Notes: generated by a model from the letters alone, not told the origin. Positions 305 through 33,699 are shown, counted from the stretch's first letter. The stretch is 37,933 bases of DNA from a virus (IMGVR_UViG_3300045988_053041:1-37933); one strand, 5' to 3'. Translations and numbers: made by a program.

Positions 305-2005
305 TTAGCCCGCCTTCGCGGTCACGCTGCCGGAGCCGACCGCAACCGCGCGGCCGTTGCCGTCGACCTCAACCACGGTAATGGTCTGGCCGGTCGTGCC
401 GTCGACGGTCTTATTCGCGGGCAGGTCTGTCCAGAGCTTATCAAGCGTCTCGCCGTTTGCGACTGCGATCGCCTGCCCGGCAGTCTGGTACTTGAGCTTG
501 CCGGAGCCGTTGCCCGCGACGGTCACGACGCTCTTGCCGTTGGCAGAGCCCGCAGCGGTGGTAACAATCAGCGTGCCGATGGCGGAGTTTGCAAGGTCCT
601 TGCCGAAGGTCGTTGTCTTGGTGGGCTCGACGTTGCCATAGTTTACAAGGACAAACGCCTCGCCGATGGCGGGCTTGCCGTCGCGGCGCTGGAGGCCCTT
701 GAAGCAGGTCTGGTTCTGAAGCCAGCGCACGTTGGTGTTGGAGTCGATGACCGTGCCCTCGCGCTCGACCGAACGGTACAGGCTAAGGAAGCCGCCCGCG
801 ATCTCGTTGTCCGGCATGACTTCCCACTCGACGATCTGACCGCCGACGACCGGCATAATGTCGCCAACGCCAGGGACCATCGCCGCAGCGGAATTGTAAG
901 CCAGCGCGCGGGACTTGATGTCCATGTGTGTCTTGCGGTTCATCGTCCAGATAACCGTGCCGTTGGAGTAGTCGGGCTTTGCAACAGCCAGTGCCGCAAC
1001 AAGCGCCTGGAAGAACTCCGTACTTGTCTTTGCGGCAAGATCAAGTTTCAGAATATGGCTGGTATGTAGGTCGGTGAATTCGCCCTGCTGCGCGCCCCAC
1101 CATGCGGGCTTCGTCGTTGCAGCCAGGCGCGTGATAATGCCGACCGGCATTTTTTCGCCCGTACCGAACCAGATAGACTTGTCGATTGCCTTGGCAAGGG
1201 AGGATGCAAGCGCCTGAAGGATGCTCGTCGCGAGCTGAAGGTCGCTGTCGTCCATCAAAACGGCGTTAGGAACGGCCATATAGCCGCCGACCATGTAGCC
1301 GTCCATGGTGAGCTGCCAGAAGTTGATGTCGAGTTCGTTGAGCGCGTCGGTCATTTCCGTCCAGATGGCTTCCGGCGCAACGCCTGCGACGTTCTGACGG
1401 GTCGTGCCGCGGAAGGTCGTCGTAAAGCAGTAGCGCAGGAACTTCGATTCCTGATACGTCAGGTCCCGCAAAATCGGCAGGAAGCCGTCCGGAATACCCA
1501 GCTCGCCGCCGGTGACGCTGCGCTGCTGGGCGCGTGCCTCGCGGACATTCTGAAGGAAAGTGCGGACCTGCTCGGACTGCATGAGCGCGTCGCGCTCGGA
1601 GTAGGTGAGGCCGAACCAACGGCGCTCGGTGGGATTGCTCATAGGTACAAAGCTCCTTTCGTGGTGATCGTTGTTTCTGGTGTCAGAGTTGGACACCGCG
1701 GGTGCTGCCGGGGGCGGGGTCTGCTCGGCTTCCAGCCGGGCAATTTCCGCGCTGCGGGTGTCGATCTCGCCCTGGATACGGGCAATCTCGGCGGCGTTCG
1801 CGCTGCGCTCCTGCTCAAAGGTATCCACAGCCGAGGATACAGCGTTGCGCTCCTCGTCGGTGCTCGTCTCAGTGATCTCGCCGAGCGCCTGGCGAAGCTG
1901 CTCTTCTCTCGCGGCAAAGCCGTCTCTCGTCTGCTCCAGCGGTCTCAGCTGCGCACGAAGCGCGGTGATCTCGCTGTTCAGGACTAAAACTCTAAGTGCT
2001 GCCAT
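305..2005 (-). CDS. Major capsid protein, HK97 family, with N-terminal coiled-coil (delta/scaffold-like) region and C-terminal Ig-like extension
   Basis: Track ORF 305..2047. I place the start at ATG 2005 (MAALRVLVLN...), 9 nt after AGGAGG and overlapping the protease TAA (TAATG). The order portal-protease-capsid and the HK97-like core support the call. Confidence 0.9.
   Translation of the reverse strand: MAALRVLVLNSEITALRAQLRPLEQTRDGFAAREEQLRQALGEITETSTDEERNAVSSAVDTFEQERSANAAEIARIQGEIDTRSAEIARLEAEQTPPPAAPAVSNSDTRNNDHHERSFVPMSNPTERRWFGLTYSERDALMQSEQVRTFLQNVREARAQQRSVTGGELGIPDGFLPILRDLTYQESKFLRYCFTTTFRGTTRQNVAGVAPEAIWTEMTDALNELDINFWQLTMDGYMVGGYMAVPNAVLMDDSDLQLATSILQALASSLAKAIDKSIWFGTGEKMPVGIITRLAATTKPAWWGAQQGEFTDLHTSHILKLDLAAKTSTEFFQALVAALAVAKPDYSNGTVIWTMNRKTHMDIKSRALAYNSAAAMVPGVGDIMPVVGGQIVEWEVMPDNEIAGGFLSLYRSVEREGTVIDSNTNVRWLQNQTCFKGLQRRDGKPAIGEAFVLVNYGNVEPTKTTTFGKDLANSAIGTLIVTTAAGSANGKSVVTVAGNGSGKLKYQTAGQAIAVANGETLDKLWTDLPANKTVDGTTGQTITVVEVDGNGRAVAVGSGSVTAKAG
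1680..1696 (-). repeat. 17-bp element copy 1 (plus strand GTGTCAGAGTTGGACAC), in the capsid gene linker
   Basis: Read directly. The gene strand gives GTG TCC AAC TCT GAC AC = VSNSDT. Confidence 0.9.
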
Positions 2006-2598
2006 TACGGGTTTCCTCCTAACTTCTTGTTCATTTCTGCGCGCCACGTTTCCAGGCGGCGCTTTTCGATTGCCTCAAAATCCCGCTTCCGGGCGCTGAC
2101 CGAGGTCTGCTCGTAAGCCGGGAAGGTGCAGACGCTGACCTCATACAGCGGGTCGATCTCTTCGATCTCCCAGCGGTATTTCCCATTGCCGAGGTCGCGG
2201 AAGGTCTCACTCTTGATGGCAAAGCCAAACGAGCACTGGTCGACGTCTCCGCGCTGGACTCTTGCATACAAGTTCATCGCGTCCACGTCGTCGCGGTTGA
2301 TACGGACGCTGCCCCAGAGGCCGCGCTCGTCCTGTTTGAGCGTCAGCGTGCCGGATTTCGTCCGGCCGAGAACTAAGCTCGTGTCGTGGTTGATGAGAGC
2401 TCGAACGTCGCCCGAGATCGAATTTGTGAAAGCGCCGGGCTTGATAATCTCGCTCACATCGTCCCACAGGGGATACTCCGAGTTAAAGACCGCAAAGTAG
2501 CCCTCAATGTAGAGGTCGCTCTCGGCTTCGCGCGTCTGAAACGCCTGCGGGATGCAGCGCACCTGACGCTGCTGTCTATTCTGTTCCACCGTCTCCAC
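2005..2598 (-). CDS. Prohead (HK97-family, S78-like) maturation protease
   Basis: Translation ...DLYIEGYFAVFNSEY...ALINHDTSLVLGRT...GDVDQCSFGF... is typical of HK97 prohead proteases. The gene lies between portal and capsid. The start may be GTG 2598 or GTG 2589. Confidence 0.88.
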   Translation of the reverse strand: METVEQNRQQRQVRCIPQAFQTREAESDLYIEGYFAVFNSEYPLWDDVSEIIKPGAFTNSISGDVRALINHDTSLVLGRTKSGTLTLKQDERGLWGSVRINRDDVDAMNLYARVQRGDVDQCSFGFAIKSETFRDLGNGKYRWEIEEIDPLYEVSVCTFPAYEQTSVSARKRDFEAIEKRRLETWRAEMNKKLGGNP

Positions 2599-4414: not shown

Positions 4415-6534
4415 GCCTTTGCCTCCTCCCGTGTTTCATACCAGCCTGCGCCCTTGGCGCTGGCGGTCAGGTCCTCCAGATATGCGCACGCGGCAAAGAC
4501 CGAACAGTCAAAAACATCGATGCGCAGGTTTGGAGCTATTTTTTCGTACATCACCATATCGTCGGCCTTTTCAATGCCGGCAACGTTTTGCACGCAGTAC
4601 TCATAGGGCTCTGCGTGCAGGTAATAGAGCGTGCCCTGCTTCGCGCTCTTTTCCAGGTACCGGAAGCCCTCGGACTTGAGCGTAAAGCGCTGAATCTGCG
4701 CCTTGATGGGGAAGCGCTCTTTCTGCATCTCCACAAAATACTCGCGGCAGAACTTCGGGTCGTGCCCGACGCGGCGGATTTTGAAGCCCTCGGCGCGGCG
4801 TTTTTTGAACCAGCGCACAACGTCGGAGTGGTTTGTCACCTTGTCGTTCGTCATGTCGAGCCAGCCGTCTTCCATCCAGCCAAAGAGCGGTATCTGGTCT
4901 TGCGTCGCTTTGACCACGGCGGCCGGCCGCGGGAACCAGCAGTGCGGGATGATGATGTCCACGCCCTTGTAGTGCCCAAACAGGCAGCAGGCCGTGAGGT
5001 CGTGCATCTTGGAAAGATCCGCGCCGCCGTACCAGCGGATGGGGAGCTTCGCGAGCTCCTGGAGCGTCCAGTTGTACTTCTCGTCCGACCGCCGGAACTC
5101 CTGGATGTCAAACCAGGCTTTGACGGCGTTCGTCGTGACGTTGAGGCTCTTGTTGAGATATTCCGGCCGGAGCATCGGGTTCTCGGCCGCGATGGCCGCG
5201 TCGTTGATCATGTCCTGCGGCCGGATGGAGTAGCCCCAGCCGGGGCTTGCGGCCTTGAGGACCGCCGGGTCATGGAGATCCACATCGCCGTTTTCCATCG
5301 TCGGCGCGGAGCACAAAAAGCAAAAGATCGTGTCGGCGTAGTCACCTGTGACCGTTCCGCGCAGAATTTTCCGGCAGAGTTCCAGATGCCCAAGCAAGAA
5401 GCCGCGCGCGTTGGGGCCGTTGGATGAAATGATAATGACAAGCTTATTTGTGTACGCCTTTGTCGCGTCCTTGAGGATCTGGTACTGCTGCGGGCTCTTA
5501 TAGGTGTGCGCTTCGTCGGCGATGACGATGTTGCAGTTAAAAGAGTCCTGCTTGTCGGGGTTGGCTGCCAGGGCGTTGATGGAGATCATGCCGTCGCCGA
5601 CATCGCCGGAGATCGACCGCTCCATGTTGTTGTCGATGATCCGCAGGCCCGTCTCCGGCTCATCCTTGACGGTCACGCCCAAGCGCGTGCAGTTGTACTT
5701 CAAAAAGTCAAAGCCCTCGAGTGCCTGCTTTAGCGCGCCGCCGACCTCGTACACCTTCGAGCCGGACGCTCGCTCATAAAGTGCCAGGGCAAAGGCCAGC
5801 GCGGCCGCAAACGTCGTCTTGACGTTTTTTCGCGGGATGAAGTCCACAGCTTCCTTGAAGCGCCGGATCTTCGTGCCGGGAAGGTAGAACCCCATGATGT
5901 TGTAGACAATGAACTTGTGGTACGGCAGGAGCAGGAACGGTGTGCCGCGCAGGGGCGTCGCGTCCAGGAACTCGCCCTGCTGGTGGCAGATCATCGTCTC
6001 GATGATGGCGATGATCTCGTTCGCGGGCTCCGTCCGGAATTCCCACTTGCCGGTGTCCAAGTCTGACACGTACCGTTTGCAGGCAAGCACCGCGTCCTCG
6101 CAGAGGCCGTTTTCTCCGGAGAGCGTCGCTTCGACAAAGCTGTCGACCTCGCGCTGGTACTGCGCGGCGTGCTCTTCGGCGTGGCTCTTGGACTCGGAGA
6201 GCAGCTGCTCAAGTTTGCTCGCGCCGCCCATCGGGACGCTCTTGGCGCGCGCCTTGTTAAGCCCCGTCGGCGTGAGGCCGAGCTGGTTGCGCAGGCCCTG
6301 CACCGTCGCGCGAAGATCCTCGACCGCTGTCCAGTACGGGCTCTTGGCTGTGTACTCCGCGCCGGTCTTGTTGACCATCGTACAGATGCGCTGCCCGCCC
6401 TGCTTCTTCCACTCTTTCTCGGCGCGGGAGAGCTCGCGCTCCGTCTTGGCCAGCTGCTTGATCGTCGGCTCGAATATTGCGTTGTAGGTGCCGACAAGCT
6501 GCATGTCCTGCCGGATCATGTCCTCTCGCGCCAT
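4411..6534 (-). CDS. terL: Terminase: small-subunit-like (P27/Terminase_4-like) N-terminal ~140 aa fused in frame to a large subunit (Terminase_1-like)
   Basis: Track ORF 4411..6627. The likely start is ATG 6534 (MAREDMIRQD...). The N-terminus ...NKTGAEYTAKSPYWTAVEDL...QLGLTPTGLNKARAK resembles small terminases. The remaining ~565 aa is TerL-like, and no stop separates the two parts. Confidence 0.85.
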   Translation of the reverse strand: MAREDMIRQDMQLVGTYNAIFEPTIKQLAKTERELSRAEKEWKKQGGQRICTMVNKTGAEYTAKSPYWTAVEDLRATVQGLRNQLGLTPTGLNKARAKSVPMGGASKLEQLLSESKSHAEEHAAQYQREVDSFVEATLSGENGLCEDAVLACKRYVSDLDTGKWEFRTEPANEIIAIIETMICHQQGEFLDATPLRGTPFLLLPYHKFIVYNIMGFYLPGTKIRRFKEAVDFIPRKNVKTTFAAALAFALALYERASGSKVYEVGGALKQALEGFDFLKYNCTRLGVTVKDEPETGLRIIDNNMERSISGDVGDGMISINALAANPDKQDSFNCNIVIADEAHTYKSPQQYQILKDATKAYTNKLVIIISSNGPNARGFLLGHLELCRKILRGTVTGDYADTIFCFLCSAPTMENGDVDLHDPAVLKAASPGWGYSIRPQDMINDAAIAAENPMLRPEYLNKSLNVTTNAVKAWFDIQEFRRSDEKYNWTLQELAKLPIRWYGGADLSKMHDLTACCLFGHYKGVDIIIPHCWFPRPAAVVKATQDQIPLFGWMEDGWLDMTNDKVTNHSDVVRWFKKRRAEGFKIRRVGHDPKFCREYFVEMQKERFPIKAQIQRFTLKSEGFRYLEKSAKQGTLYYLHAEPYEYCVQNVAGIEKADDMVMYEKIAPNLRIDVFDCSVFAACAYLEDLTASAKGAGWYETREEAKA
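6053..6069 (+). repeat. 17-bp element copy 2 (GTGTCCAAGTCTGACAC), in the terminase gene
   Basis: Read directly. The gene strand gives VSDLDT. Confidence 0.95.
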
Positions 6535-7510: not shown

Positions 7511-8227
7511 TTACGCCTTTCGCTTTTCCCTGTTTCGCCAGGGAAGCTTGTAGTCCACATAATAATAGCTGCCGAACTTGTTTTCCTTCGCCTCGGGCTC
7601 TACGTCAAAGGCCTCTTTCGGTGGCACAGGCCGGTAGTTGTCCGGGACTTTTTCGACAGTGATGCGTGGTTTTTCAAGGTTCCGTGATGGCGTCCACAAT
7701 CGGTCGCCCACATATTCCCGTCCGTGCTGCATCGGCTCTTTGGTCAGATACTTTGCCAAGCCAACAAAGCCGAGCTTCCCGACGGGCTCCCAGTTGATAT
7801 CGCCGTCCGGCCAGAGCTTGCGGAGCACTTCCGTCTCGCCGGGATAATGGTTGAGGATGATGTGGTGATGCAAACGCTTGTCTCCGTGCCGGCCTTCGGT
7901 GGTGTACAGATATTTGTAAGGCCGACCGAAGGCTTTGCGGCTCTCGCGCAGCTGACGGTTAAAAAGCTTCACCCGCTTCTGCGCGGCGAAGGTGTTCGGC
8001 GGCTTGTGCGCCTCGTCGTAGGTGAGCGTGAGCAGCCAGTCCGAATACGTAAAGTTTGCGGCGATCAGAAACGCAAGCCGCTCATAGGCGTGGCGAATGT
8101 TGAGCTTTTCGCGGATGGTTGTCTGCGGCAGGCTCTTCGGCGCTCTGCCTCGTCGCTTGGCCAGCGGCTCGGTGAACACGCACTCGCGGCATAAGACGGA
8201 TGTTTTCATGGATACAAGATAGCTCAC
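7511..8227 (-). CDS. HUH-superfamily rolling-circle replication initiator (Rep)
   Basis: Three RCR motifs are visible: WLLTLTYDE (motif 1), RLHHHIILN (HUH) and GLAKYLTKE (catalytic Tyr). GTG start at 8227 after AGGAGG. Confidence 0.75.
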   Translation of the reverse strand: MSYLVSMKTSVLCRECVFTEPLAKRRGRAPKSLPQTTIREKLNIRHAYERLAFLIAANFTYSDWLLTLTYDEAHKPPNTFAAQKRVKLFNRQLRESRKAFGRPYKYLYTTEGRHGDKRLHHHIILNHYPGETEVLRKLWPDGDINWEPVGKLGFVGLAKYLTKEPMQHGREYVGDRLWTPSRNLEKPRITVEKVPDNYRPVPPKEAFDVEPEAKENKFGSYYYVDYKLPWRNREKRKA

Positions 8228-8343: not shown

Positions 8344-8682
8344 TCATTTTTTCTTGCGCCGGGTGGATACCTTTTTGTAATTAAATTCCCGGATGTGCGG
8401 GTTGCGCTCGCGGAACGGGACAAAATGCGCGCCGCAGGCCTTGCGGAGGATCGCGTCCAGCCGTTCTTGCAGCCAGTCGGCTTCCGGGCCGCAGCCGTAT
8501 GCGCCGTCAAATTCCGTGTCCAACTCGGACACGCGGCACGCCAGCCGGTAAAGCCGCTCTTCGCCGAAGCCCTCCTGCGCGAGCGCTGCGAGAAACATGT
8601 CGGAGACTTTCTGCATACCTGCCTCCACGCCGATCTCCATCGCCGCCCGCCCAACCGCGTCCAGCTGGTCAACGTATTTCAA
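8344..8682 (-). CDS. Hypothetical early protein (contains 17-bp element copy 3)
   Basis: C-terminal part of track ORF 8344..8835. Possible starts are TTG 8682 after AAGGAGGGGG, or ATG 8640. No recognisable family. Confidence 0.55.
   Translation of the reverse strand: MKYVDQLDAVGRAAMEIGVEAGMQKVSDMFLAALAQEGFGEERLYRLACRVSELDTEFDGAYGCGPEADWLQERLDAILRKACGAHFVPFRERNPHIREFNYKKVSTRRKKK
8516..8532 (+). repeat. 17-bp element copy 3 (variant GTGTCCAACTCGGACAC), in an early hypothetical gene
   Basis: Read directly. The gene strand gives VSELDT. Confidence 0.85.
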
Positions 8683-8851
8683 CGCGCGTCTTCCCCCTCC
8701 TTGCGTGCACGGCCAACTCCTGATAAATGCCAATCTTGAACAAAGTCCACCGGCCAAAGTAGGAGTTCCGATTCTGCGCAATGTGGTTTGCCTCGTTGCG
8801 GGGCATCCCCAGCACGCCCATGCAGAGCTTTGCAAATCGTTTTCGTGTCAT
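8669..8851 (-). CDS. Hypothetical small early protein
   Basis: ATG 8851 lies 6 nt after AGGAGG (MTRKRFAKLCMGVLGMPRNE...). It is part of track ORF 8669..8953. Confidence 0.6.
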   Translation of the reverse strand: MTRKRFAKLCMGVLGMPRNEANHIAQNRNSYFGRWTLFKIGIYQELAVHARRGKTRVEIR

Positions 8852-13090: not shown

Positions 13091-14598
13091 ATCGAGCCCT
13101 CCTCTTCCGGCGGCAAATGCAGCCAGCGCAGGATATTCGGGCCGTTGTCCGTCAAAAGTTCTGCGCTATATAGCTCCAGCTCCCCGCAGTGCGCGGTATC
13201 AACGTCATAGATCCGCATGCCCTCGGTTTCAAGCAGCAACAGGACCGGCCCGTCCGGGAAATCGCGGTCTGTGCGCCAGGCCATCCGAAAAGCGCCTTCC
13301 GGCAGCGCCGCCGTGTCAGACTTGGACACCGGCTGAAGCTCGTCCGTCAGCCCCAGCAGATAGTCTGCCGAGCAGTGTAGCTCTGCACAAAGTGTCGGGA
13401 TGGCGCGCGAACTTGGAAGTAAAAACTCGTTGTTCCAAAGGCTCCTTGCGCCAAATTCGCCTTCTGCAAAATTCCGGATATCTGCGGCGGTTTTCATGCC
13501 GACGGTGTCGTTGATTATAAGGATCGTGCCGTCCGCCAGACCTGCCGCATCAATGGCTCTCACAATTCGTTGCGCATATTGCTGGGCTGCCGCATGGAAG
13601 ACACGCTGTTTATTCTCCTTTTCGGTTTCCTCTTTCTGCTTTTCGGCGGCGTTTTTGTCCGTGCGGTACTGCTTGGCCTTGGAGCACATCTGATCGCAGA
13701 CGTCATAGCAGCCACGCGCTTTCGCGCCATACTTGCAGTCCATGCAGCACATTTCGCCCTTGCACTGCGGCGTCCACGAGCCGCACGTGGCGTCATGCCG
13801 AAGCGTTGCGTCGTCTCTGGAATTCGGGCACCACTTACCATCCGGGCAGCGGAAGCGATTGCTCGGGTGCCAGGTCGCGCCCTTCTCGGCGAGTTCCCGC
13901 ACCTGCACAATTCCGGCAGATGTGGGAAATTCTTTCGTCCGGGCAAATGCATCGTATAGCCGCTGTTGCAAGGTAAAATCACACCGGGCAAGTTCCAAAG
14001 CCGTCGCATCGGGAAGCTTCCCAGCCGCCCACTGTGCCTTAAAATCGCTGGTGAGGTTCTCCTCGATCATGTGCAGGTTCGCAAGCTTCGTCTTGCTCAC
14101 ATTGCACGCCTCGGCCACATGGTCGCGCATCCGGCCGGGGAACTCCACGCCTTGCTCCTTAAGGTCATAAAGCAGACGCTCCACGCGCTGCGCCGCCTGG
14201 CTGATCTCCGCGCTCGTGAGCACTCTGGCCGTGGAGTTTGCCATGATGAGCTCCAGTTCTTCCATGGCCGCGCTTTTGGGGCTCCGGACGAAAACCGGCA
14301 CTTTGCGAAGATCCTCGCGCCCTTCTGCGACCAAAGCCCGAACCGCAGCCGTGCGCCGGTGGCCGGAAATAAGGCGGTACTTGCCGTCCTCCGTGCGCGT
14401 GACCGTCGGCGGGTCCATAATGCCGGAGAGCGCAATGGAGTTTTTGAGCTCTTCGAGTTTGTCCTCGTCAACGGCGTAAAAGTTCGCGTCGTTGCTGACT
14501 AAATCGTCAATGTCGACCTGCGTGAGCTCGCGTCCGGTGTCAGACTTGGACACCGCCTGCACCTGCTTAGCAAAAATGCTTGAAACGTCAAATGCCAT
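13087..14598 (-). CDS. parB: Atypical ParB/Spo0J-family protein: ParB N-domain, HTH, Cys-rich insert, XRE-like helix and DUF551-like C-terminus
   Basis: ...YRLISGHRRTAAVRAL... is the ParB GxxRxxA box. ATG 14598 overlaps the parA TGA (TGATG). The gene carries two copies of the 17-bp element, each encoding VSKSDT. Confidence 0.8.
   Translation of the reverse strand: MAFDVSSIFAKQVQAVSKSDTGRELTQVDIDDLVSNDANFYAVDEDKLEELKNSIALSGIMDPPTVTRTEDGKYRLISGHRRTAAVRALVAEGREDLRKVPVFVRSPKSAAMEELELIMANSTARVLTSAEISQAAQRVERLLYDLKEQGVEFPGRMRDHVAEACNVSKTKLANLHMIEENLTSDFKAQWAAGKLPDATALELARCDFTLQQRLYDAFARTKEFPTSAGIVQVRELAEKGATWHPSNRFRCPDGKWCPNSRDDATLRHDATCGSWTPQCKGEMCCMDCKYGAKARGCYDVCDQMCSKAKQYRTDKNAAEKQKEETEKENKQRVFHAAAQQYAQRIVRAIDAAGLADGTILIINDTVGMKTAADIRNFAEGEFGARSLWNNEFLLPSSRAIPTLCAELHCSADYLLGLTDELQPVSKSDTAALPEGAFRMAWRTDRDFPDGPVLLLLETEGMRIYDVDTAHCGELELYSAELLTDNGPNILRWLHLPPEEEGSI
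13313..13329 (-). repeat. 17-bp element copy 4 (GTGTCAGACTTGGACAC, reverse complement of the main form), in the parB 3' third
   Basis: Read directly. The gene strand gives VSKSDT. Confidence 0.95.
14537..14553 (-). repeat. 17-bp element copy 5 (GTGTCAGACTTGGACAC), in parB codons ~16-21
   Basis: Read directly. The gene strand gives VSKSDT. Confidence 0.95.
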
Positions 14599-15408: not shown

Positions 15409-16731
15409 TCAGTCCGGCAGCTTGAACTGCTCGGGCACATCGTCGTTACATGGCTTCCAGCGCTTGTCCGGCTCCGGGCGCGGCGCCTGGGAAGCTGATT
15501 TTTTGAATGTCTGCGTCTGGCCGTCAAAGGCCAGCATCAGCGCGATATTTGCCTCGCCCTCTTTGTTCTTTGCGATGTTGAGGATGCGGCGGCTCCGGCT
15601 GTTGTCCGGCTCTTCGCGATAGAGCAGCATGACCACGTCCGCGTCCTGCTCGATCTGGCCGGAGGAGCGGAGCGAGGCCAGCGTCGGGGGCGGGATCTTG
15701 CCGCCCTTGGTCTTCTCGGGGCGCGAGAGCTGCGAGAGCGCGATGACGGGCGTGCCGGTCTGCCTGCCGAACTGCTGCAAGTCGCTCGAAATTTTCGAGA
15801 CGACCTGAAACTGGTCGGCTGCGCCGCGGCCTGTAATATCGCTCTTGATCTTTTGCAGGTAGTCGATGAAGATCACGTCGTAGCGCTTGGACAGGCTGTG
15901 CGCCCGGATGTCCTGGACGGTCATGCCGCTGGCCTCGACGAGCTCCAGCTTTAGCCCACCCAGCCGCTCGGAGAGCACTGCGACGGTTTCCCAGTCGGTC
16001 GCGTTCATGGCGTTGAGTTTCAGCTTCGGCAGGCCAATTTGTGCGGTCATGGCGATGATGCGGTCGAAGAGCTTGTCGCAGTCGGTCTCGTAGCTGTAAA
16101 AGCCGACGCGCATCGTCTTGGCCATCCGCACGGCGAGCGTCAGAGCGAGGCTCGTCTTGCCGTCCGACGGGTAGCCGCCGAGGACGACCATATCGCCCCG
16201 GGAGGCATAGACGTTTTCGTTGATATCCTCCATGCCAAAGTCCAGATAGACGGGCTTTGCGTCCGGGTCGTGCCGCTGATAAAACTGCGTCAGTGCGGCG
16301 GACATGTCCACCACGCGCAGCCCCGGCCGCTCGACCAGCTGGGCGTTTGCCTCATTGACCAGCCCGCGCAGATCGTCCTCGTCGTCCGTGTCCTGCATCC
16401 GCTGGGCAATACCTTGCAGACGGCTGACTCTGGCCTGCTGCTTTAAAAGCTGCATGTAGCTCTTGACGTTGGCCGCCGTCGGCGTGACCTGGATCAGCTC
16501 CATGAGAAGCTTGTCATACTTGCCGCCGAGCCGCGCGTTGATCGTCACCGCGTCGCAGGGCTCGCCGCTCGAAAACTGCGCCCGGAAGGCGAGGAACACT
16601 TGCCGGTAAGCGCCGGTCGTGAAGTCATCCGGGACGATCTCCTGAAGCACAAGGCCGACGGTTTTCTCGTCAATGAGCATCGCGCCGAGGACGGCCTGCT
16701 GGGCTTCCAACAGCTTTTTTTCGTCCGTCAC
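15409..16731 (-). CDS. dnaB: Replicative DNA helicase (DnaB family)
   Basis: 440 aa with a DnaB N-domain (…QQAVLGAMLIDE…) and a RecA-like core (…VLGGYPSDGKTSLAL…). GTG start overlaps the upstream TGA. Confidence 0.9.
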   Translation of the reverse strand: MTDEKKLLEAQQAVLGAMLIDEKTVGLVLQEIVPDDFTTGAYRQVFLAFRAQFSSGEPCDAVTINARLGGKYDKLLMELIQVTPTAANVKSYMQLLKQQARVSRLQGIAQRMQDTDDEDDLRGLVNEANAQLVERPGLRVVDMSAALTQFYQRHDPDAKPVYLDFGMEDINENVYASRGDMVVLGGYPSDGKTSLALTLAVRMAKTMRVGFYSYETDCDKLFDRIIAMTAQIGLPKLKLNAMNATDWETVAVLSERLGGLKLELVEASGMTVQDIRAHSLSKRYDVIFIDYLQKIKSDITGRGAADQFQVVSKISSDLQQFGRQTGTPVIALSQLSRPEKTKGGKIPPPTLASLRSSGQIEQDADVVMLLYREEPDNSRSRRILNIAKNKEGEANIALMLAFDGQTQTFKKSASQAPRPEPDKRWKPCNDDVPEQFKLPD

Positions 16732-17480
16732 AGGAACCTCACACCTCCCGTATCAACCTCGCGCTTCTGCGCCTTCGGCAGCTCGTCGTCCTTCAGCGGG
16801 AAGACGCTCAGCCACTGCCGCTCCGTTGCGAGGTCAAGCAGCGCGGCCATGTTTGCCGAGTCACCGTCGGACAGGCTCATGAGCTTGTTCCAAAGCAGCG
16901 TGGCAGCCTGCTTGGACTTGACCGGCTTTTTGATCTCGACCCGCATTTTCAAGAACCGCCCCATCGCCTCGGTGGCAGACGGACCGTAAAGCGCGCACTT
17001 GGCAAGGAGGGAGGCGGCGACGTCGCCAGACGGCGCACTTTCTTTTTCCTTTTTCTTTTTATTATCTTTTTTATATCCATCCTTATATAACGACCGGGAA
17101 GTTTGTCCCGGTACCCCGGGATTTTTGTCCCGGTACGTACCGGGACGTTCGTCCCGGTACCCCTCATCCTCGTCGAGGATGACCGGCGCGGCGACCACGG
17201 GGGAAATGTAGCGGATGGAGCCGCCCGTCTTGCGGTTCGGCACGACCCGGACTTGGATGTGTCCGTCATGCTGCAAGGCCGCGAGCCAGCGCCGGATCAC
17301 GTCCTCCGAGCAGTGCATGGCGGCGGCCAGCTGGGCGTTACTCGGCCAGCAATAGCCCTCGCGCCGCATGAGAGACGAGAGCACGCCGTACAAAATCTTT
17401 GCATTGGCTTGCAGCTGCATATCGTCTAAGACGGTTGCGGGGATCACGGACCAAAACGCCCGAAAATCTTGATTTTCCAA
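16728..17480 (-). CDS. Replisome organiser / replication initiator (winged-HTH N-domain, DnaD-like C-terminal region)
   Basis: ...IPATVLDDMQLQANAKILYGVLSSLMRREGYCWPSNAQLAAAMHCSEDVIRRWL... Start placed at TTG 17480, 5 nt after GGAGGTG. The gene contains the iteron/AT-rich block. Confidence 0.75.
   Translation of the reverse strand: MENQDFRAFWSVIPATVLDDMQLQANAKILYGVLSSLMRREGYCWPSNAQLAAAMHCSEDVIRRWLAALQHDGHIQVRVVPNRKTGGSIRYISPVVAAPVILDEDEGYRDERPGTYRDKNPGVPGQTSRSLYKDGYKKDNKKKKEKESAPSGDVAASLLAKCALYGPSATEAMGRFLKMRVEIKKPVKSKQAATLLWNKLMSLSDGDSANMAALLDLATERQWLSVFPLKDDELPKAQKREVDTGGVRFL
17041..17165. promoter_or_regulatory. Candidate replication origin: AT-rich tract plus GTCCCGGTAC iterons inside the organiser gene
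   Basis: AT-rich tract at 17041-17090. GTCCCGGTAC occurs at 17105-17114, 17127-17136 and 17151-17160. An inverted copy GTACCGGGAC at 17137-17146 forms a 20-bp palindrome with the second repeat. Confidence 0.65.
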
Positions 17481-17499
17481 AAAATCACCTCCCCCACAC

Positions 17500-17528
17500 T
17501 TGCAATTGGCAGCAAACCGTGATAAACT
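17500..17528 (+). promoter_or_regulatory. Candidate plus-strand promoter (TTGCAA-17 nt-TAAACT)
   Basis: -35 TTGCAA at 17500-17505 and -10 TAAACT at 17523-17528, with a 17-nt spacer. Confidence 0.35.
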
Positions 17529-17534
17529 AAAGAT

Positions 17535-17600
17535 GCCTTCATGGTGTTGCAAAACACCGTTCCCGTGCAGTCGTTCGCAGCGGCTGTGCGGGATTTTTTT
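17535..17600 (+). ncRNA. Candidate ~65-nt antisense small RNA
   Basis: Downstream of the candidate promoter lies hairpin GGTGTT-GCAA-AACACC (17543-17558). It is followed by CCCGTGCAG-(13 nt)-CTGTGCGGG plus ATTTTTTT (17562-17600), a plus-strand terminator in a region with no plus-strand gene. Confidence 0.35.
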
Positions 17601-17728: not shown

Positions 17729-18163
17729 TTATCCTCCTTTGTTGTAAGCGACGGCCAGCGCGCTTTGGACGATCTCGTCGAGCTTGGAGACGATCCGGTC
17801 GAACTCCGGCCGCTCCGTGTCGTCGATCACGCCGTCTTTTGCAATCGTAATCAGGCGACGGTCTTCGCGCGCGTCGGCAAAGTCATAAATTTGGTCAATG
17901 AGCCGCAAGACGGCCTCCGGCAGATCGCACTCCCGCACATCGGGAATGAGCCGCTGGGCGATCTCGCTCGTCTGGCGCAGGTGCTGGTAGCACAGATACT
18001 GCGCGTCGTAAATTTCCGCCATCCGCACAACCGTCTCCGACGGCGGGATGCGTACGCCGCTCTCATAATCGGCGAGGCTCCGCACCGAGCACGGAATCGC
18101 GTCGGCTGCGCGCTCCTGCGTGATGCCCTTGGCAATGCGGGCGGCTCCGTAGATATTTGGCAT
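17729..18163 (-). CDS. XRE-family HTH protein with a ~80-aa C-terminal domain
   Basis: ATG 18163 after GGAGG (MPNIYGAARIAKGITQERAADAIPCSVRSLADYESG...). Inner part of track ORF 17729..18376. Confidence 0.75.
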   Translation of the reverse strand: MPNIYGAARIAKGITQERAADAIPCSVRSLADYESGVRIPPSETVVRMAEIYDAQYLCYQHLRQTSEIAQRLIPDVRECDLPEAVLRLIDQIYDFADAREDRRLITIAKDGVIDDTERPEFDRIVSKLDEIVQSALAVAYNKGG

Positions 18164-18246
18164 GTGTCCTCCAATCCGGCAGCAAGTCTGCAAGCCGCCT
18201 TTGCCCTTCGGCAGGTATTTCGCGTGGGAATGCTGGGTAAACTTTG

Positions 18247-18459
18247 CTATGATTTTCGCGTCAGCCAGCGAGCCAGCTCCGTCAGCGGCACGGCGTACTT
18301 GTTGCCGACCTTCCGCGCGGGGAACTCCCGGTCGGCCAAAAGCGTCCGCCGGTCGAGCCCGAGCGCCGCCTGGCACTCCGTGACCGTGATCGCCGCCCGC
18401 GCCGGAAACATGTCCGTCAAAAGCTCCAGCTGCGGCCTGTAGCCTTCCGTCTCACGCAT
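18247..18459 (-). CDS. Excisionase-like / MerR-type small HTH protein
   Basis: 70 aa, ...ITVTECQAALGLDRRTLLADREFPARKVGNKYAVPLTELARWL.... AGGAGG-7nt-ATG. Its position in the early lysogeny-switch operon fits. Confidence 0.6.
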   Translation of the reverse strand: MRETEGYRPQLELLTDMFPARAAITVTECQAALGLDRRTLLADREFPARKVGNKYAVPLTELARWLTRKS

Positions 18460-20657: not shown

Positions 20658-20782
20658 TGCTGCAAGCAGTGTGGGAGCCGCCTGTGAGTATAGCTTACAA
20701 CGCGGCAAGCGGGAATGTCGAGAAAGCATCATTGTAAATTGTACCCAGAATCGCATTATTTAGGAAAGGAATCTTGCTGAGA

Positions 20783-21256
20783 ATGTCGGAATTATACGAA
20801 ATCTGTCGAGAAAAAAAGGAAAACACGGCGCCGCGTATCACAAACCAGGATCTTGCCGAAGCAATCGGCAAATCAACAACCACTGTTGCGCAGTTCCTGC
20901 GCGGAGATGCCCCAAACGCGTCCTACGACACAGTGCTTGCGCTGTGCCGTGAGCTTGGGGTGTCAGTAGACGAATACAATGGACTGCCGCATGAGGTTCC
21001 GGACCCGAACCCCGCGCTGCTGGAGCGGATACACAGTCTGGAGTCAGAGCGCAAGGCATTGGCCGATGCGTTAGAACGGATGAATGAGCATCTGGTGACT
21101 TGCAAGAAATCGCTGAAAATGCACCGTTTCGTAACAACTGTCCTGCTGTCCATGTTTTGCCTTGTGCTTCTCGCGATCATCATCGACCTGCTGGACCCGA
21201 ATGTCGGCTGGATTCGCCGCGTGTCCCATATCGGCATGCAGTGGCTGAATCTGTAA
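20783..21256 (+). CDS. Membrane-anchored XRE-type HTH protein (HTH, coiled coil, C-terminal TM)
   Basis: ...ITNQDLAEAIGKSTTTVAQFLRG... followed by ...FVTTVLLSMFCLVLLAIIIDLL.... The start is ATG 20783 or TTG 20774. Confidence 0.7.
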   Translation: MSELYEICREKKENTAPRITNQDLAEAIGKSTTTVAQFLRGDAPNASYDTVLALCRELGVSVDEYNGLPHEVPDPNPALLERIHSLESERKALADALERMNEHLVTCKKSLKMHRFVTTVLLSMFCLVLLAIIIDLLDPNVGWIRRVSHIGMQWLNL

Positions 21257-21258
21257 CG

Positions 21259-21275
21259 GTGTCCAAGTCTGACAC
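21259..21275 (+). repeat. 17-bp element copy 6 (GTGTCCAAGTCTGACAC), intergenic and abutting the integrase SD
   Basis: TAAcgGTGTCCAAGTCTGACACGGGAGGtttgtATG. Confidence 0.95.
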
Positions 21276-21286: not shown

Positions 21287-22309
21287 ATGGCGATCCCCAA
21301 GTACTACGTGCGCCCGGATGGGCTGCATGAGACGATCATCAAAATAAACGGCAAGCGCAAGGCCTTCCGGGGGAAGACTGACCGCGAGGTCTGGGAGAAG
21401 GTCAAAAGCTATCGCGCCGACGTGGCCGCTGGGAAGACCGAGACATTTGAGAACGTAGCGCACGCCTGGTGGAACGAGATCGAGCCGACGCTCGCCGCAA
21501 ACACACACCGGGGCTATAACCCGGCCTATGAGCGCGCCGTGGCCGAGTTCGGGGAAATGGACGTGGCCTCGATCACAGCCAGAGATATTGAGCGCTATAT
21601 CAACCAGTTTGCGAAGACCTACGCCAAAAAGACCGTCGTCACACAGCGGCAGATCATCCGCCAGATCTTAAACAAAGCCCAGCGCGAGGGTTATATCGCC
21701 TACAATCCGGCGGAGGCCGTCCTGCTCCCCAAAAACCTGCCGCAGAAAAAGCGCCGCGCGCCAAGCCCTGATCAAATAAAAAAAATAAAAGCCGGCCTTT
21801 CGGACGACTTTGGGCTCTTTGCCTTTTTGATCTACTATACTGGGTGTCGCCGCGGCGAGGTGGAGGGGCTCAAGTACGAGGACATCGACCGCAAGGCAAA
21901 GCGCATCCGTATCCAGCGCAGCGTCTACAATGTCAGCACCAAGCCGGAGATCAAGGGGCCAAAGACCGAGGCCGGTATCCGCTCCGTGCCGCTGCTGGAC
22001 GCGTTGGCCGCTGCCCTGCCAGATAAAAAACACGGTTTTATATTTTCTGACGACGGCGGCAAAACCCCGACGCCGGACTGGAGGATCACCCGGCAGTACG
22101 AGGACTACCAGAAGCGCACCGGCGTCACCGTCACGCCGCATGAGATCCGACACGGCTACGCGACGGCCCTGCACGAGGCGGGCGTGGATTATAAAACTGC
22201 CCAGCAGCTGCTTGGCCACGCCCAGCTCTCGACCACGATGGACATTTACACGGATATTTTGGACAATACCATCGACGATGCAGCCGCAAAAATGGGCAAG
22301 TCCTTTTGA
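21287..22309 (+). CDS. int: Tyrosine site-specific integrase
   Basis: 340 aa with a SAM-like N-domain and a catalytic region ...TGCRRGEV...HEIRHGYAT...LLGHAQLSTTMDIYTD.... GGGAGG SD. Confidence 0.92.
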   Translation: MAIPKYYVRPDGLHETIIKINGKRKAFRGKTDREVWEKVKSYRADVAAGKTETFENVAHAWWNEIEPTLAANTHRGYNPAYERAVAEFGEMDVASITARDIERYINQFAKTYAKKTVVTQRQIIRQILNKAQREGYIAYNPAEAVLLPKNLPQKKRRAPSPDQIKKIKAGLSDDFGLFAFLIYYTGCRRGEVEGLKYEDIDRKAKRIRIQRSVYNVSTKPEIKGPKTEAGIRSVPLLDALAAALPDKKHGFIFSDDGGKTPTPDWRITRQYEDYQKRTGVTVTPHEIRHGYATALHEAGVDYKTAQQLLGHAQLSTTMDIYTDILDNTIDDAAAKMGKSF

Positions 22310-22491: not shown

Positions 22492-22498
22492 TTCATCT

Positions 22499-22521
22499 TG
22501 GCGGAGTGGGAGGGATTCGAA
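22499..22521 (-). other. tRNA 3'-end fragment (T-loop, T-stem 3' arm, acceptor 3' arm, CCA); candidate attP core
   Basis: Minus strand reads TTCGAAT-CCCTC-CCACTCC-G-CCA. The matching 5' T-stem (GAGGG) and the rest of a tRNA are absent. Confidence 0.65.
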
Positions 22522-25487: not shown

Positions 25488-25492
25488 AAACA

Positions 25493-25524
25493 CCCGGTGT
25501 CCAACTTGGACACCGGGTATTTTA
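25493..25524. terminator. Bidirectional rho-independent terminator built from 17-bp element copy 7
   Basis: CCCGGTGTCCAA-C-TTGGACACCGGG. The plus strand continues TATTTTATAT and the minus strand TGTTTTTATCC. It lies between convergent genes. Confidence 0.8.
25497..25513. repeat. 17-bp element copy 7 (perfect palindrome GTGTCCAACTTGGACAC), core of the bidirectional terminator
   Basis: Read directly. Confidence 0.9.
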
Positions 25525-29334: not shown

Positions 29335-29338
29335 ACGC

Positions 29339-29926: not shown

Positions 29927-29929
29927 AAT

Positions 29930-30461: not shown

Positions 30462-30467
30462 ATCACC

Positions 30468-30689: not shown

Positions 30690-31729
30690 GCAATCACCGT
30701 CCTTTTTGCGGTATGGGTCATGAGCTCTCCGGGGCTGAGCCGCAGCTGCCAGCCGGTCTCCTCGTAGATGCCGCCGAATTCCGACGCGTCGATGCTCAGA
30801 ACGTCGCCCACGCCGTGCCCACCCTCCGGCAGGCCGTAGAATGTGATCGTCCGGGTACCGAGCTGGGACTGGAAGCAAAGATCGTCCACGTAGGCTTGCA
30901 GCGCCTCCTGCGAGGCGATATTGTCCACTTTGACCACCTGCGTGATGCGTTGGCCGCGCTTAAAAATGGAGATGGAGCTGGACGGGCTGTTGTTCTCTGC
31001 GCGCGCTACCAGCGGCGTCTCCAAGTCCGGATTGCTGCAAATGGCGACAAAGACATTCGGCGCGTCGAAGATGTCCTGCTCCTGCGACATATCGCGCGAG
31101 ACGGGAGCCAGCAGCCGGATATCCGTGCTCGAGTAGCGCCAGCGGATATTTGCCGCATTTGGTGTTGCCTTTGGCTCCAGGTGCCCGATGCCGCTGCCGT
31201 CGAACCACACGGGCTTGTAGTTTATCTCGCCCAGCAGCTGGTTGCAGATCGTGAGATAGTCCGTGCCCTCCTGCCAGTCCTCTCGGTCGGTCTGCAAGGT
31301 CTCGCTCGTGGGTGTGGCGATCACGAGGCCGATCCCGGCCTGCGTCATGAGCTGCTGCACCGCCGTCAGATAGTTCGTGCCGGCGGCCAGATGCAAAATG
31401 CCCTCCGTCTTGATCGTCTGGATCATCCAACTGCGGTCGTACGCGTCGAGCCGGAGGAAGTGCCCCTGCGCGCTGACGGTGTCCGAGTACGTCGTGATGC
31501 GGTACACGCCCAAGGGGTACTCTTGCCCGTCAAGCTCCAGCACAGGCTGGAGCTCGTCGGAAAGATATTCGATATCGGGGTTGTGCATAAATGTTCCGCC
31601 GAGGCTTCCCATGATGTCTCCGGACGCGTCGACGAGCACGTCGGGCGCGGAATCTTTGAGCCATCTCAGCTCTGAGAACTTCGCGCCGTGCCGGAGCACG
31701 TCCACGCGGTAAGATATCCTGTGCGTCAT
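30686..31729 (-). CDS. Tail-associated (Tal-like) minor structural protein
   Basis: 347 aa. It is the second gene after the tape measure, the expected position for Tal. Confidence 0.65.
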   Translation of the reverse strand: MTHRISYRVDVLRHGAKFSELRWLKDSAPDVLVDASGDIMGSLGGTFMHNPDIEYLSDELQPVLELDGQEYPLGVYRITTYSDTVSAQGHFLRLDAYDRSWMIQTIKTEGILHLAAGTNYLTAVQQLMTQAGIGLVIATPTSETLQTDREDWQEGTDYLTICNQLLGEINYKPVWFDGSGIGHLEPKATPNAANIRWRYSSTDIRLLAPVSRDMSQEQDIFDAPNVFVAICSNPDLETPLVARAENNSPSSSISIFKRGQRITQVVKVDNIASQEALQAYVDDLCFQSQLGTRTITFYGLPEGGHGVGDVLSIDASEFGGIYEETGWQLRLSPGELMTHTAKRTVIA

Positions 31730-33699
31730 AGCCTCACCTCGTCGTCAAAGTCGATCTGCTCGATGGTAAAATTAAAAACATTGAGGAAGCCGTCGTGTTG
31801 CTTGGGTAGGCTCGTGATGTAGCCGATGACCATATCGCCCTGCGGCGTTTTGGCGCAGACAAGCTTTCCCACAAGTCCCATGAGCTGCCTGATCTCGCTC
31901 TCATCGAGCAGCACCGCCGTGATGCTGAGCGAATCCGTGCCGGAGTCGACCTCGACCGCGACGGGATAATACGCGCCGGAGAGCTGCAAGAGCTCGACCT
32001 GCCGGGAAAGTGTCCGTGTGGTCTGCCGGTGCTGGCTGTCGGAGTATGGGAGTCTCAAGGTCTGGCCGGTGTCCAAGTCTGACACCTGATGCACCTCCGC
32101 GCGAACGTCGACCGTGACCGCCGAAGACAGGCCGTAGTTGCCGGAATCGTTGTAGCAGCCGCGCACCTGGTACGTTGTGCTGCCGGAGGACAGCTCGTCG
32201 GTGTACTGCGTCTGGGTGAGCTTTGCAATCGGCTTTTCGTTTCGGTACACGAGATAGAAATCATAGCTCCCGGTCGTCTGCCAGCTGAGCTCTGCGACGC
32301 TCGATGCCTCGACGTTCAGCGAGATTGCCGCGCCCGGCGTGTTGGTGACAGGCAGCGCCGCCGCGCCCCAGTTGGACCACATGCCATATTGATTTTGCAC
32401 GCGCACGCGCACCGTGTGGCTGCCGTCCGAAAGATACGCGGGGCTCGTCCATGTCTTCTCCGTGCCGTAGTGCGTGCCGCCGGAAAGCTTCCCGTCCAGC
32501 TCCACCTGGTACGCCTCCTGCTCGGAGGTCTGCCAGCTGATGGACGGGCGCGGACCCGTGCTCTTGATCTGGATACTCGGAGCCGTCGGCGCGGCAATCA
32601 CAACGATCTGTGCCGCATCACTCCATTCTCCCGCAATGCCGTCGGCGTTGTAGGTGCGCACGCGCCAGTATTTGATGCTGGATGTGAGCGTCCCGGCAGG
32701 GCACGTCCACTGCCGCGCAGCGCCGGTGACGGTTGCAAGCGTCGTCCATGTCTGCCCATCCGTGCTTTTTTGCAGGTCTGCCTTGCTCTGCGCTGTCCCG
32801 GTTGAGATCGAGTGCTGCCACTGGAACAGTACATCCTTCGAGCCATCAATCACCGTGTCGACCGGGCTCAGAGGCGCGGCGGTCGGCGTTGCATCGGCGG
32901 TTGAGAGCGTCACCCAGTCGGATGTTGTGACCACGCCGCTGTTTGCCGTGACCGCGACCTGCCACTGGATGCTCGTCGTGCCAGTGAAGGTGTTGGCGGG
33001 TACCGTGACGCTTTGTGCGCTGCCGGAGACGGAGATCGTGTGGATCGTGCCGCTCGTGCCGGAGCGCCAGCGGAAAACGGCAGATGTCTGTTCCAGTACA
33101 GCGATACATTTTAACGCGGGGTCTGTACCCCATGCGAAGGTGTTTGGCTCTGTTTTTACAATAGACCCCGAACTCGGCGTTGTCTCGAATATTTTTAGCC
33201 CACAGGTTATCGTATCGTCCACAGTCACTGGAATATATGGCCGGTTTGCGCCTGCTGTAACGATTGACGCAAAATCCATAGATACCGATATATCGATAAA
33301 CACGCCCTTTTGCACCGCGTCAGGAATCGGGAGCCCATATGTCGACTCACACAGTTTCGGGAGGTCTTCAGCGTAAACGTTTTTCGTCTCGACTTTGCTC
33401 ACGTGGAAACGCTGCTTGGTAGCATAGGTAGCGGTAAGAGGGTCGAAGCGCTCAGTCAAGGTACCTATTTTTAGGTTGACTGTGTCGTTTTCGCCTGCTG
33501 CCTGCACATATACGTTGATTTTTGTCCAATCGTCAACAAGCTTTTTGTACTGCTTCCCGTCGCTAGGCGACTGGAATTGCAAGTACAGTAAATCGCGATA
33601 GTAGAGCTTTGCTGGGGAGGTTGTGTGGTCGTTGACGTTTTGCGCGTCATTTTTCAAGATCGCAAATGCCGAACAGTACAGATTAAAACTCGTTGCCAC
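31726..33699 (-). CDS. Distal tail protein (Dit-like) with fibronectin-III-like repeat insertions
   Basis: 657 aa, immediately downstream of the tape measure. It has repeated ~90-aa segments ending ...W..V.T.N..G..GEWS.. (FN3-like). GTG start. Confidence 0.7.
   Translation of the reverse strand: MATSFNLYCSAFAILKNDAQNVNDHTTSPAKLYYRDLLYLQFQSPSDGKQYKKLVDDWTKINVYVQAAGENDTVNLKIGTLTERFDPLTATYATKQRFHVSKVETKNVYAEDLPKLCESTYGLPIPDAVQKGVFIDISVSMDFASIVTAGANRPYIPVTVDDTITCGLKIFETTPSSGSIVKTEPNTFAWGTDPALKCIAVLEQTSAVFRWRSGTSGTIHTISVSGSAQSVTVPANTFTGTTSIQWQVAVTANSGVVTTSDWVTLSTADATPTAAPLSPVDTVIDGSKDVLFQWQHSISTGTAQSKADLQKSTDGQTWTTLATVTGAARQWTCPAGTLTSSIKYWRVRTYNADGIAGEWSDAAQIVVIAAPTAPSIQIKSTGPRPSISWQTSEQEAYQVELDGKLSGGTHYGTEKTWTSPAYLSDGSHTVRVRVQNQYGMWSNWGAAALPVTNTPGAAISLNVEASSVAELSWQTTGSYDFYLVYRNEKPIAKLTQTQYTDELSSGSTTYQVRGCYNDSGNYGLSSAVTVDVRAEVHQVSDLDTGQTLRLPYSDSQHRQTTRTLSRQVELLQLSGAYYPVAVEVDSGTDSLSITAVLLDESEIRQLMGLVGKLVCAKTPQGDMVIGYITSLPKQHDGFLNVFNFTIEQIDFDDEVRL
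32069..32085 (+). repeat. 17-bp element copy 8 (GTGTCCAAGTCTGACAC), in the Dit-like tail gene
   Basis: Read directly. The gene strand gives VSDLDT. Confidence 0.95.

Follow-up and report, generated by a model that had tools for sequence, protein, structure and literature searches.

Several described systems combine a ParB-family protein with palindromic DNA sites. In Bacillus subtilis, one parS site lies inside the spo0J gene. On plasmid RK2 the OB site, a 13-bp palindrome with a central base, is present in 12 copies. KorB, the RK2 protein of this family, doubles as a partition protein and a long-range regulator (PMC11790492). Another example is the Sop system of N15, in which SopB uses four separate palindromic inverted-repeat (IR) sites, GTGCGACC-NN-GGTCGCAC, arranged as 8+2+8 (PMC7205306). 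On the integrating element ICEclc, parS-like sites serve to load the ParB-like cytidine triphosphate (CTP) clamp BisD, which slides along tens of kb and has a domain that ParB lacks (PMC12409273). KorB and BisD are examples of long-range regulation by ParB clamps that have several loading sites (PMC11790492, PMC12409273). Here, a family of dispersed sites is described in IMGVR_UViG_3300045988_053041:1-37933, a 37,933-nucleotide stretch of viral DNA (the whole of which is referred to as the window) that represents a temperate siphovirus of gut Clostridia. These 17-bp imperfect palindromes, whose sequence was not found in the literature searched, are very probably binding sites for the ParB protein encoded by the phage itself.

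The window contains exactly eight copies of the pattern GTGTCNNNNNNNGACAC (GTGTC-N7-GACAC), at 1680, 6053, 8516, 13313, 14537, 21259, 25497 and 32069, whereas 100 dinucleotide-preserving shuffles gave a mean of 0.07 copies and a maximum of 1. The motif family is sharply bounded and has no halo of degenerate copies, because a search of the window with up to three mismatches returns the same eight places and no further ones. Five copies are an identical 17-mer, reading GTGTCCAAGTCTGACAC at 6053, 21259 and 32069 and its reverse complement at 13313 and 14537; the copies at 1680, 8516 and 25497 are variants. With all copies oriented alike, CG precedes the element in seven of the eight, and C or G follows it in every one. 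The element makes most sense as a pair of 8-bp half-sites (GTGTCCAA, GTGTCAGA or GTGTCCGA) on either side of one central base, and the family consensus is CG-GTGYCMRA-N-TYKGRCAC.

Six of the copies lie in genes, namely those for the major head protein, the terminase, a small early open reading frame (ORF) product, ParB (twice) and a tail protein, and two are intergenic. The gaps between sites range from 1.2 to 7.5 kb and average about 4.7 kb, and the largest gap in the window is smaller than for eight random points (P about 0.013). An initial annotation made from the sequence alone had reported the eight copies with their positions and sequences, a count beyond chance, the CG that usually comes before them, their placement in genes and their spacing around the circle. 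All of these descriptions hold, and the circle measures 37,878 bp. The perfect palindrome that had been recognised at 25497 extends to 27 bp and has T-runs on both sides, giving a terminator-like hairpin. The copy at 21259 starts 2 nt past the stop of the upstream helix-turn-helix (HTH) gene, lies 11 nt ahead of the integrase ATG and touches a GGGAGG ribosome-binding site.

All six coding copies start at codon position 1 and encode V-S-x-x-D-T. The head protein has VSNSDT, the terminase and the tail protein each have VSDLDT, the small early ORF has VSELDT, and ParB has VSKSDT at both places. These sites occupy linker-like positions, for instance just ahead of the Phage_capsid-domain part of the head protein, at the junction of the TerS-like and TerL domains, at the junction of the ParB N-terminal peptide with the N-domain, and in the C-terminal linker of ParB. 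Some clades prefer GTGCCCGA-N-TCGGGCAC, in which GTGTC...GACAC has become GTGCC...GGCAC and the encoded peptide has turned from VSKSDT into VPESGT. Since both arms change symmetrically, it can be argued that the DNA palindrome, and not the peptide, is the selected object. One clade retains only the core GTCCAATTTGGAC. The initial annotation had proposed a comparison of synonymous positions, and wobble positions are indeed fixed within the sites while flanking synonymous positions vary. Sites can originate in place by point substitution of existing codons, as exemplified in TerL by the change from VADLDS to VSDLDT. The copy at 13313 seems to have been gained recently, within a linker and without disturbing the frame. 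The VSxxDT sites, held in a single frame at linkers, show how DNA-level and protein-level constraints are reconciled and illustrate cleanly how a DNA signal can be superimposed on codons.

The motif follows the ParB family across relatives. An unbiased sample of 80 loci, with ParB identities of 36-90%, was picked by ParB peptide patterns and not by the motif. The 78 newly fetched ParB-anchored loci hold 216 sites in 1.19 Mb, and at least one site is present in 76 of them, in keeping with the earlier proposal that the element be sought in relatives with a homologous parB. Most of these loci have a site at, or within about 30 nt of, the same 5' position in parB (the first ~20 codons). The motif is found in genomes with this ParB family down to about 30% ParB identity. 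For example, Flavonifractor phage Cormatin, the nearest named phage by ParB (42% identity), and MT835558 (37%) have no nucleotide similarity to the window, yet each carries four copies (GTGTCCAASTTGGACAC and CGGTGTCCAATTCGGACACCG, respectively), one of them in the first parB codons. ParB is present in 12/12 distant motif-bearing loci as opposed to 0/27 loci of the DUF3102 type, in which it is replaced by another protein; judged by sequence comparison, it is the only protein with a perfect presence/absence match to the motif. No homologs of the genes downstream of parB were detected in Cormatin, MT835558 or other distant motif-bearing genomes. Homologs of the window ParB at E<=1e-10 number more than 3,700 and come from gut Clostridia phages, and no plasmid was found with this ParB family beyond N-domain similarity. 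The exact 17-mer has 14 matches in 596 Gb of genomes, mostly in unrelated taxa, and on this count a host-wide repeat or uptake sequence is rejected.

A few ParB-type relatives (L135 and L143/L144) have a mutated site in the 5' part of parB (GTATCTAAGTCCGACAC; GTGTCCAAGTCGGACGC). In one of them, L135 (IMGVR_UViG_3300045988_051687), 16.6 kb of sequence contain no intact site, despite a ParB identity of 74%. It may be a lineage that is losing the system or one with altered specificity.

Sister phages without this ParB were found through terminase-anchored loci. Their TerL is 85-87% and their ParA about 72% identical to those of the window, and regulators and integrase are kept. Where parB would follow parA, however, these phages have a gene for a DUF3102 protein of 360-382 aa. 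Its N-terminus reads M[AP]FDVSRILQ, compared with MAFDVSSIFAK in ParB. The shared peptide beside ParA implies that the N-terminus was kept while the DNA-binding body was exchanged, and the replacement looks like a modular exchange of centromere-binding proteins on a constant ParA. The sites are lost along with ParB. The initial annotation had named persistence of the motif at the same density in relatives lacking parAB as a sign of another binder. In these phages, which lack ParB, 19 of the 21 DUF3102-anchored loci (371 kb) have no site over 333 kb together. These loci hold homologs of the switch-region HTH (Cro/CI-type) regulators, the repressor-like protein beside int, the integrase (up to 71%), RepI, DnaB and Rep2. 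De novo k-mer and palindrome counts in DUF3102-type phages gave nothing comparable as a second dispersed motif.

Conservation of individual sites separates the two lineages. Pooling ParB-type with DUF3102-type relatives at first made the sites look less conserved than they are, and the figures here use split lineages. The head site (1680) is intact in 25/25 ParB-type and 7/33 DUF3102 relatives; identity in the site versus its flank is 0.998 versus 0.918 in the former and 0.519 versus 0.705 in the latter. Likewise, the terminase site (6053) is intact in 29/31 ParB-type relatives (0.991 versus 0.906) and in 3/33 DUF3102 relatives (0.683 versus 0.800). In DUF3102 lineages its codons specify VADLGS, VADLDS or VADLDR and differ even for shared residues. 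Individual copies turn over within ParB-type lineages, with 8516 intact in 16/26, 13313 in 12/24 and 21259 in 11/15 relatives, and the copy at 32069 is intact in all four relatives that cover the tail position. The clearest exception to site loss is L290, a DUF3102-type locus with four sites, which carries a swapped cassette of about 4 kb and is 97.5% identical to the ParB-type L143 to either side of it. The cassette starts at the shared N-terminal peptide, placing the crossover there. L290 appears to be a recent recombinant whose sites have not yet decayed, and contigs related to it already carry broken copies, such as GGCCAC in the terminase site. The two types of sister phage and the one recombinant constitute a natural experiment in which sites in essential genes are kept with their putative binder and then decay.

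The window ParB matches Pfam ParB_N (E 7.8e-10), and its sequence matches in the PDB are ParB of Myxococcus, Caulobacter and Bacillus (Spo0J) as well as Noc. The alignment with Caulobacter ParB reaches query residue 205, into the HTH region; the Pfam HTH_ParB model gave no match on this protein. In an AF2 model (34 homologs, mean pLDDT 78), residues ~25-240 take the form of the ParB/Noc/KorB N-terminal domain and an HTH. Foldseek matched the model to Noc (7nfu) and to a C-terminally truncated Caulobacter ParB-parS complex (6t1f) with target-normalised TM of 0.72-0.73 over 204-231 alignment columns. KorB (8qa9) was matched with a target-normalised TM of 0.65, at a sequence identity of about 16% over the aligned fold. 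Across 34 homologs, with identities as low as 33%, there is no variation at G79 H80 R81 R82 (GHRR, the GxxR motif), N121 or R125. The model agrees with the fold of CTP-bound ParB, Noc and KorB, and the protein also carries the motifs of ParB clamps.

Beyond this core, ParB contains an eight-Cys region (about aa 251-305), a 47-residue helix and a C-terminal beta domain, for none of which a PDB match was found. The eight-Cys region may be a metal- or Fe-S-binding insertion, which is unusual for ParB. The invariant cysteines are C251, C257, C279, C284, C285, C288, C301 and C305, in a central region that is modelled with lower confidence (block mean pLDDT about 50-80). In alignment A1 the VSKSDT peptide of the 13313 site is absent from two distant ParBs. 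The parA stop codon overlaps the parB start. The canonical ParA-stimulating peptide LG[KR]GL is absent from the ParB N-terminus, where MAFDVSSIFAK is conserved instead. This peptide is suggested to be a ParA-contact element, since it is common to the DUF3102 replacement beside a 72%-identical ParA.

The window has a G+C content of 58.1%, and the majority of its genes are on the minus strand (Table 1). It is circularly closed, because its ends (1-55 and 37879-37933) share an exact 55-bp direct repeat. This repeat is an assembler overlap and not a sign that the genome is linear and bounded by genuine terminal repeats with a known function. No close phage exists at the nucleotide level in INPHARED, against which megablast gave no match. 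In IMG/VR, the exact 17-mer is found in 105 stretches of contigs, mostly from human-gut samples and many on 37-38 kb contigs, and these stretches are 66-96% identical to the window. A REP_ORF2/G2P-type protein, conserved at 28-42% in all relatives including Cormatin, sits between the early genes and the terminase; with RepI, the phage therefore has two different initiator-like proteins. The single 738-aa terminase ORF combines a Terminase_4 small-terminase domain (aa 41-125) with TerL ATPase/nuclease domains, and the L200 terminase is likewise called as one ORF, of 710 aa. The 738-aa ORF is either a fused TerS-TerL or one with an uncalled internal start.

Table 1. Candidate sites and other features of the window, with the positions of two DUF3102-type loci in relatives
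Feature	Position	Strand	Details
parS-like site GTGTCCAACTCTGACAC (minus-strand reading)	1680-1696	-	Major head protein aa 118-123, VSNSDT
parS-like site GTGTCCAAGTCTGACAC	6053-6069	+	Terminase ORF aa 187-192, between TerS-like and TerL domains; coding strand VSDLDT
parS-like variant GTGTCCAACTCGGACAC	8516-8532	+	Small early ORF 8344-8835 (-), VSELDT
parS-like exact 17-mer	13313-13329	-	3' part of parB, VSKSDT at aa 424-429
parS-like exact 17-mer	14537-14553	-	parB codons 16-21, VSKSDT, between N-terminal peptide and ParB N-domain
parS-like exact 17-mer	21259-21275	+	Intergenic, between HTH gene 20774-21256 and integrase
parS-like site GTGTCCAACTTGGACAC (25497-25513)	25492-25518	.	Intergenic; extended perfect 27-bp palindrome
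parS-like exact 17-mer	32069-32085	+	Tail protein ORF 31726-33699 (-) aa 539-544, VSDLDT
Portal, protease, major head protein	305-2047	-	
Terminase ORF, 738 aa	4411-6627	-	TerS-like and TerL domains
REP_ORF2/G2P-type protein	7511-8227	-	Rolling-circle Rep-like domain; PHROG 'replication initiation protein'
Small early genes	Including ORF 8344-8835	-	
parB, 503 aa	13087-14598	-	Pfam ParB_N
parA, 265 aa	14598-15395	-	Walker-type ParA/Soj-like ATPase without N-terminal HTH; AAA_31/CbiA, phrog_164
DnaB	15409-16731	-	
Replication initiator (RepI)	16728-17552	-	
HTH regulator	17729-18376	-	
CI-type HTH gene		+	
Repressor-like HTH gene	20774-21256	+	
Tyrosine integrase	21287-22309	+	
Tape measure and tail proteins		Most genes -	Including tail protein ORF 31726-33699 (-)
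DUF3102-type loci	L229 2519-3667; L240 3380-4462		

In addition to a repI-dnaB-parA-parB gene block, the window has an integrase and, as attP, a copy of the tRNA-Ser 3' end. This copy (TTCGAATCCCTCCCACTCCGCCA) lies downstream of int at about 22497-22520 on the minus strand. It matches the junction of L200, which is integrated at an intact tRNA-Ser(GGA) adjoining the host genes for FtsW and a transpeptidase (PBP) (L200 2407-2498), and it is the attP core. The attP copy and the L200 junction therefore indicate that the phage family integrates. Cormatin is listed at coordinates in the Flavonifractor plautii YL31 genome among induced prophages (PMC10197239). ParBs of the Cormatin clade are often found on 57-120 kb contigs, and contigs of the window clade are mostly stand-alone and about 38 kb long. 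The family is not a strictly extrachromosomal prophage without integration, which is the N15 or P1 lifestyle; an additional episomal phase beside integration is conceivable.

The initial annotation had favoured a family of ParB-loading sites, and each comparative test that was run (co-occurrence, the copy in the 5' part of parB and loss on ParB swap) points the same way. It is likely that the palindromes are sites of the parS type at which the phage's own ParB loads, and that bound ParB then works with ParA. Four of the components expected of a ParABS system are present: a ParB_N domain with GxxR, an HTH after it, an adjacent Walker-type ParA and co-inherited palindromes on the same replicon. 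A ParB dimer would read the two 8-bp half-sites by its HTH domain, after which the ParB/Srx N-domain with its invariant GxxR would close as a nucleotide-dependent clamp, leave the site and spread. Eight sites about 4.7 kb apart could allow the whole 38-kb genome to become ParB-coated. The N-terminal peptide (MAFDVS...) would engage the adjacent ParA ATPase, which would position or segregate the phage DNA while it is extrachromosomal, whether following infection or excision or while it is carried as an episome. That ParB binds the sites physically, depends on CTP and spreads, and that partition results, are predictions of this model. The repI-dnaB-parA-parB block is a complete plasmid-like maintenance module, and the position of parAB within it suggests that ParABS would act when the genome is extrachromosomal. 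The balance between partition as the main job, on the one hand, and regulation or organisation, on the other, is close to even.

Several observations weigh against a ParB partition system of this kind. The link between ParB and the sites is correlative, and binding is inferred from sequences. No ParB alignment columns were found that separate GTGTC-preferring from GTGCC-preferring genomes; the two arm forms are mixed within genomes, so that site position 4 (T/C) is probably just degenerate and no covariation is claimed. Along with ParB and DUF3102, about 2.5 kb of small genes next to them are exchanged, and these are excluded as the binder only because no homolog of them was detected in distant motif-bearing genomes. 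The ENLQR-equivalent box of ParB reads ANSTAR, and nucleotide hydrolysis may therefore differ from that of canonical ParB. The even spacing of sites belongs to the window only and is absent in the distant relatives Cormatin and MT835558. Moreover, the family integrates, so a plasmid-style centromere is not obviously needed, and parAB is located in the repI-dnaB early operon and not in a separate lysogenic unit. One parS is normally enough for a 38-kb replicon, so partition leaves the dispersal of four to eight sites unexplained.

A doubtful but possible alternative is one in which ParB at dispersed sites is mainly a long-range transcriptional regulator or genome organiser and partition is secondary or absent. 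Such a ParB could act by promoter silencing, like KorB on RK2, or by late-gene activation, in the manner of BisD on ICEclc or of N15 Sop in a helping role. Chromosomal integration weakens the need for a centromere, scattered multiple sites are typical of KorB, and KorB is itself among the structural matches. BisD acts on an integrated element from two bisS sites, sliding over about 50 kb with 11 promoters (PMC11790492, PMC12409273). In the window, one site abuts the integrase ribosome-binding site and another forms the terminator-like hairpin. The Cys-rich region, long helix and beta domain of ParB are missing in canonical ParB, and BisD likewise has an extra, activator domain. However, ParB is translationally coupled to ParA and shares its N-terminal peptide with the DUF3102 replacement, which argues for partition-type mechanics. 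Six of the eight sites lie inside ORFs at linker codons and not near promoters, where KorB-type sites are positioned. No KorA- or BisC-like partner was identified; Pfam and PHROG scans recognised no KorA/TrbA-like co-repressor, a weak negative given the many unannotated small ORFs. The DUF3102-type sister phages also run the same late genes without such sites. It is rather unlikely that this integrating temperate phage loads a ParB-type clamp at genome-wide sites in its own ORFs as a whole-genome organiser or regulator. If true, in the extrachromosomal phase the viral chromosome would be coated, compacted or positioned by the clamp, late transcription would be gated, or both, and the system would be the equivalent in a phage of KorB or BisD and not an ordinary plasmid centromere. 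A metal- or redox-sensing input might then come from the conserved eight-Cys domain.

It is improbable that the palindromes are bound by some other factor, travelling with the parB cassette or supplied by the host, and that their link to ParB is indirect. Such a factor could be a small phage regulator, a nucleoid protein or a reader related to restriction/modification or defence. The correlative evidence, the several small ORFs besides parB in the exchanged cassette of about 4 kb and the lack of a discriminating ParB residue for the T/C variant leave room for it. Yet these small ORFs have no detectable homologs in distant motif-bearing genomes, and the motif is not enriched in host-type genomes. 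A regulator other than ParB had been considered in the initial annotation, but all switch-region HTH regulators, including those of the Cro/CI type, also occur in motif-free genomes. Furthermore, a site lies inside parB throughout the family, across ParB identities of 36-90%, and a 16-17-bp palindrome is a typical parS format. The same annotation had listed tyrosine-recombinase cores as an alternative, and the elements resemble these superficially in their 5-bp inverted arms and 7-bp spacer, with one copy directly beside int. This reading, or one of footprints of a small mobile repeat, is highly improbable: the attP core lies elsewhere, some motif-free genomes have integrase homologs with as much as 71% identity, and sites originate in place by codon substitution. 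Identity with a recombinase core or att site is rejected, the junction being the tRNA-Ser 3' end and not the 17-mer. The flanks are unconserved beyond CG...SG, and a mobile repeat is therefore rejected as well. Operators of the lysis-lysogeny switch, which had already been discounted along with att sites, are rejected in the absence of any site between the divergent HTH genes at 17.7-19.1 kb.

The reading of the palindromes as ParB-loading sites defines a site sequence and a likely candidate binder for a large, uncharacterised ParB family of gut Clostridia phages. It also raises the question of what role a multi-site ParABS plays in a phage that integrates. Cormatin in F. plautii YL31, a member of the OMM12 consortium, provides a cultivable model.

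Compared with known systems, the window ParB has its best sequence and fold matches among chromosomal ParABS and Noc/NBS proteins, with which it shares the GxxR motif. A short Soj-like ParA without an N-terminal HTH and a palindromic site inside parB itself are further likenesses to chromosomal ParABS. In contrast, the window site is unrelated to TGTTNCACGTGAAACA and of odd length, and the window ParB is about 220 aa longer, with a Cys-rich region. The sites cover the whole replicon instead of clustering near the origin, and the element is a phage. KorB-OB of RK2 is similar in combining a ParB-family CTP clamp with multiple odd-length palindromes dispersed around a mobile replicon, and KorB matches the N-terminal domain and HTH of the window ParB in structure. 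Here, however, no clamp-locking partner like KorA or TrbA was identified in the phage, and the sites are mostly intragenic, whereas those of RK2 are promoter-associated. The replicons also differ, a Firmicute phage as opposed to a Gram-negative plasmid, and identity over the aligned fold is about 16%. BisD resembles the window ParB as a ParB-like clamp on an integrating mobile element and in having an extra domain. It differs in using two sites and in acting as an activator with BisC, with no ParA partner described (PMC12409273), whereas the window family has 4-8 sites and an adjacent, translationally coupled ParA.

By analogy, N15 offers the nearest functional precedent. It is a temperate phage with a ParA-type ATPase and an HTH ParB-family protein, and its single palindromes are scattered over the phage genome and do not form one clustered centromere. 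The formats are also alike, 8+2+8 in the N15 IR and 8+1+8 (GTGYCMRA-N-TYKGRCAC) in the window. The N15 half-site GTGCGACC and the GTGCCCGA half-site of the L160/L162/L188 type have an outer GTGC and the 8-bp arm in common, a likeness that may be coincidence, the two proteins not being closely related. The N15 prophage of enterobacteria is a linear plasmid that does not integrate and must therefore be partitioned, whereas the window family integrates at tRNA-Ser. The window ParB is no relative of SopB, its nearest sequence and fold matches being chromosomal ParB and Noc, and it has a Cys-rich insertion and extra C-terminal domains. Another difference is that the 4-8 sites of the window family lie mostly inside ORFs in a fixed reading frame. 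The kind of system, a ParB with several loading sites, is known; the site sequence and the phage family are unreported, and the ParB architecture, the integrating phage as carrier, the fixed-frame intragenic embedding and the ParB/DUF3102 cassette swap with site decay set this case apart.

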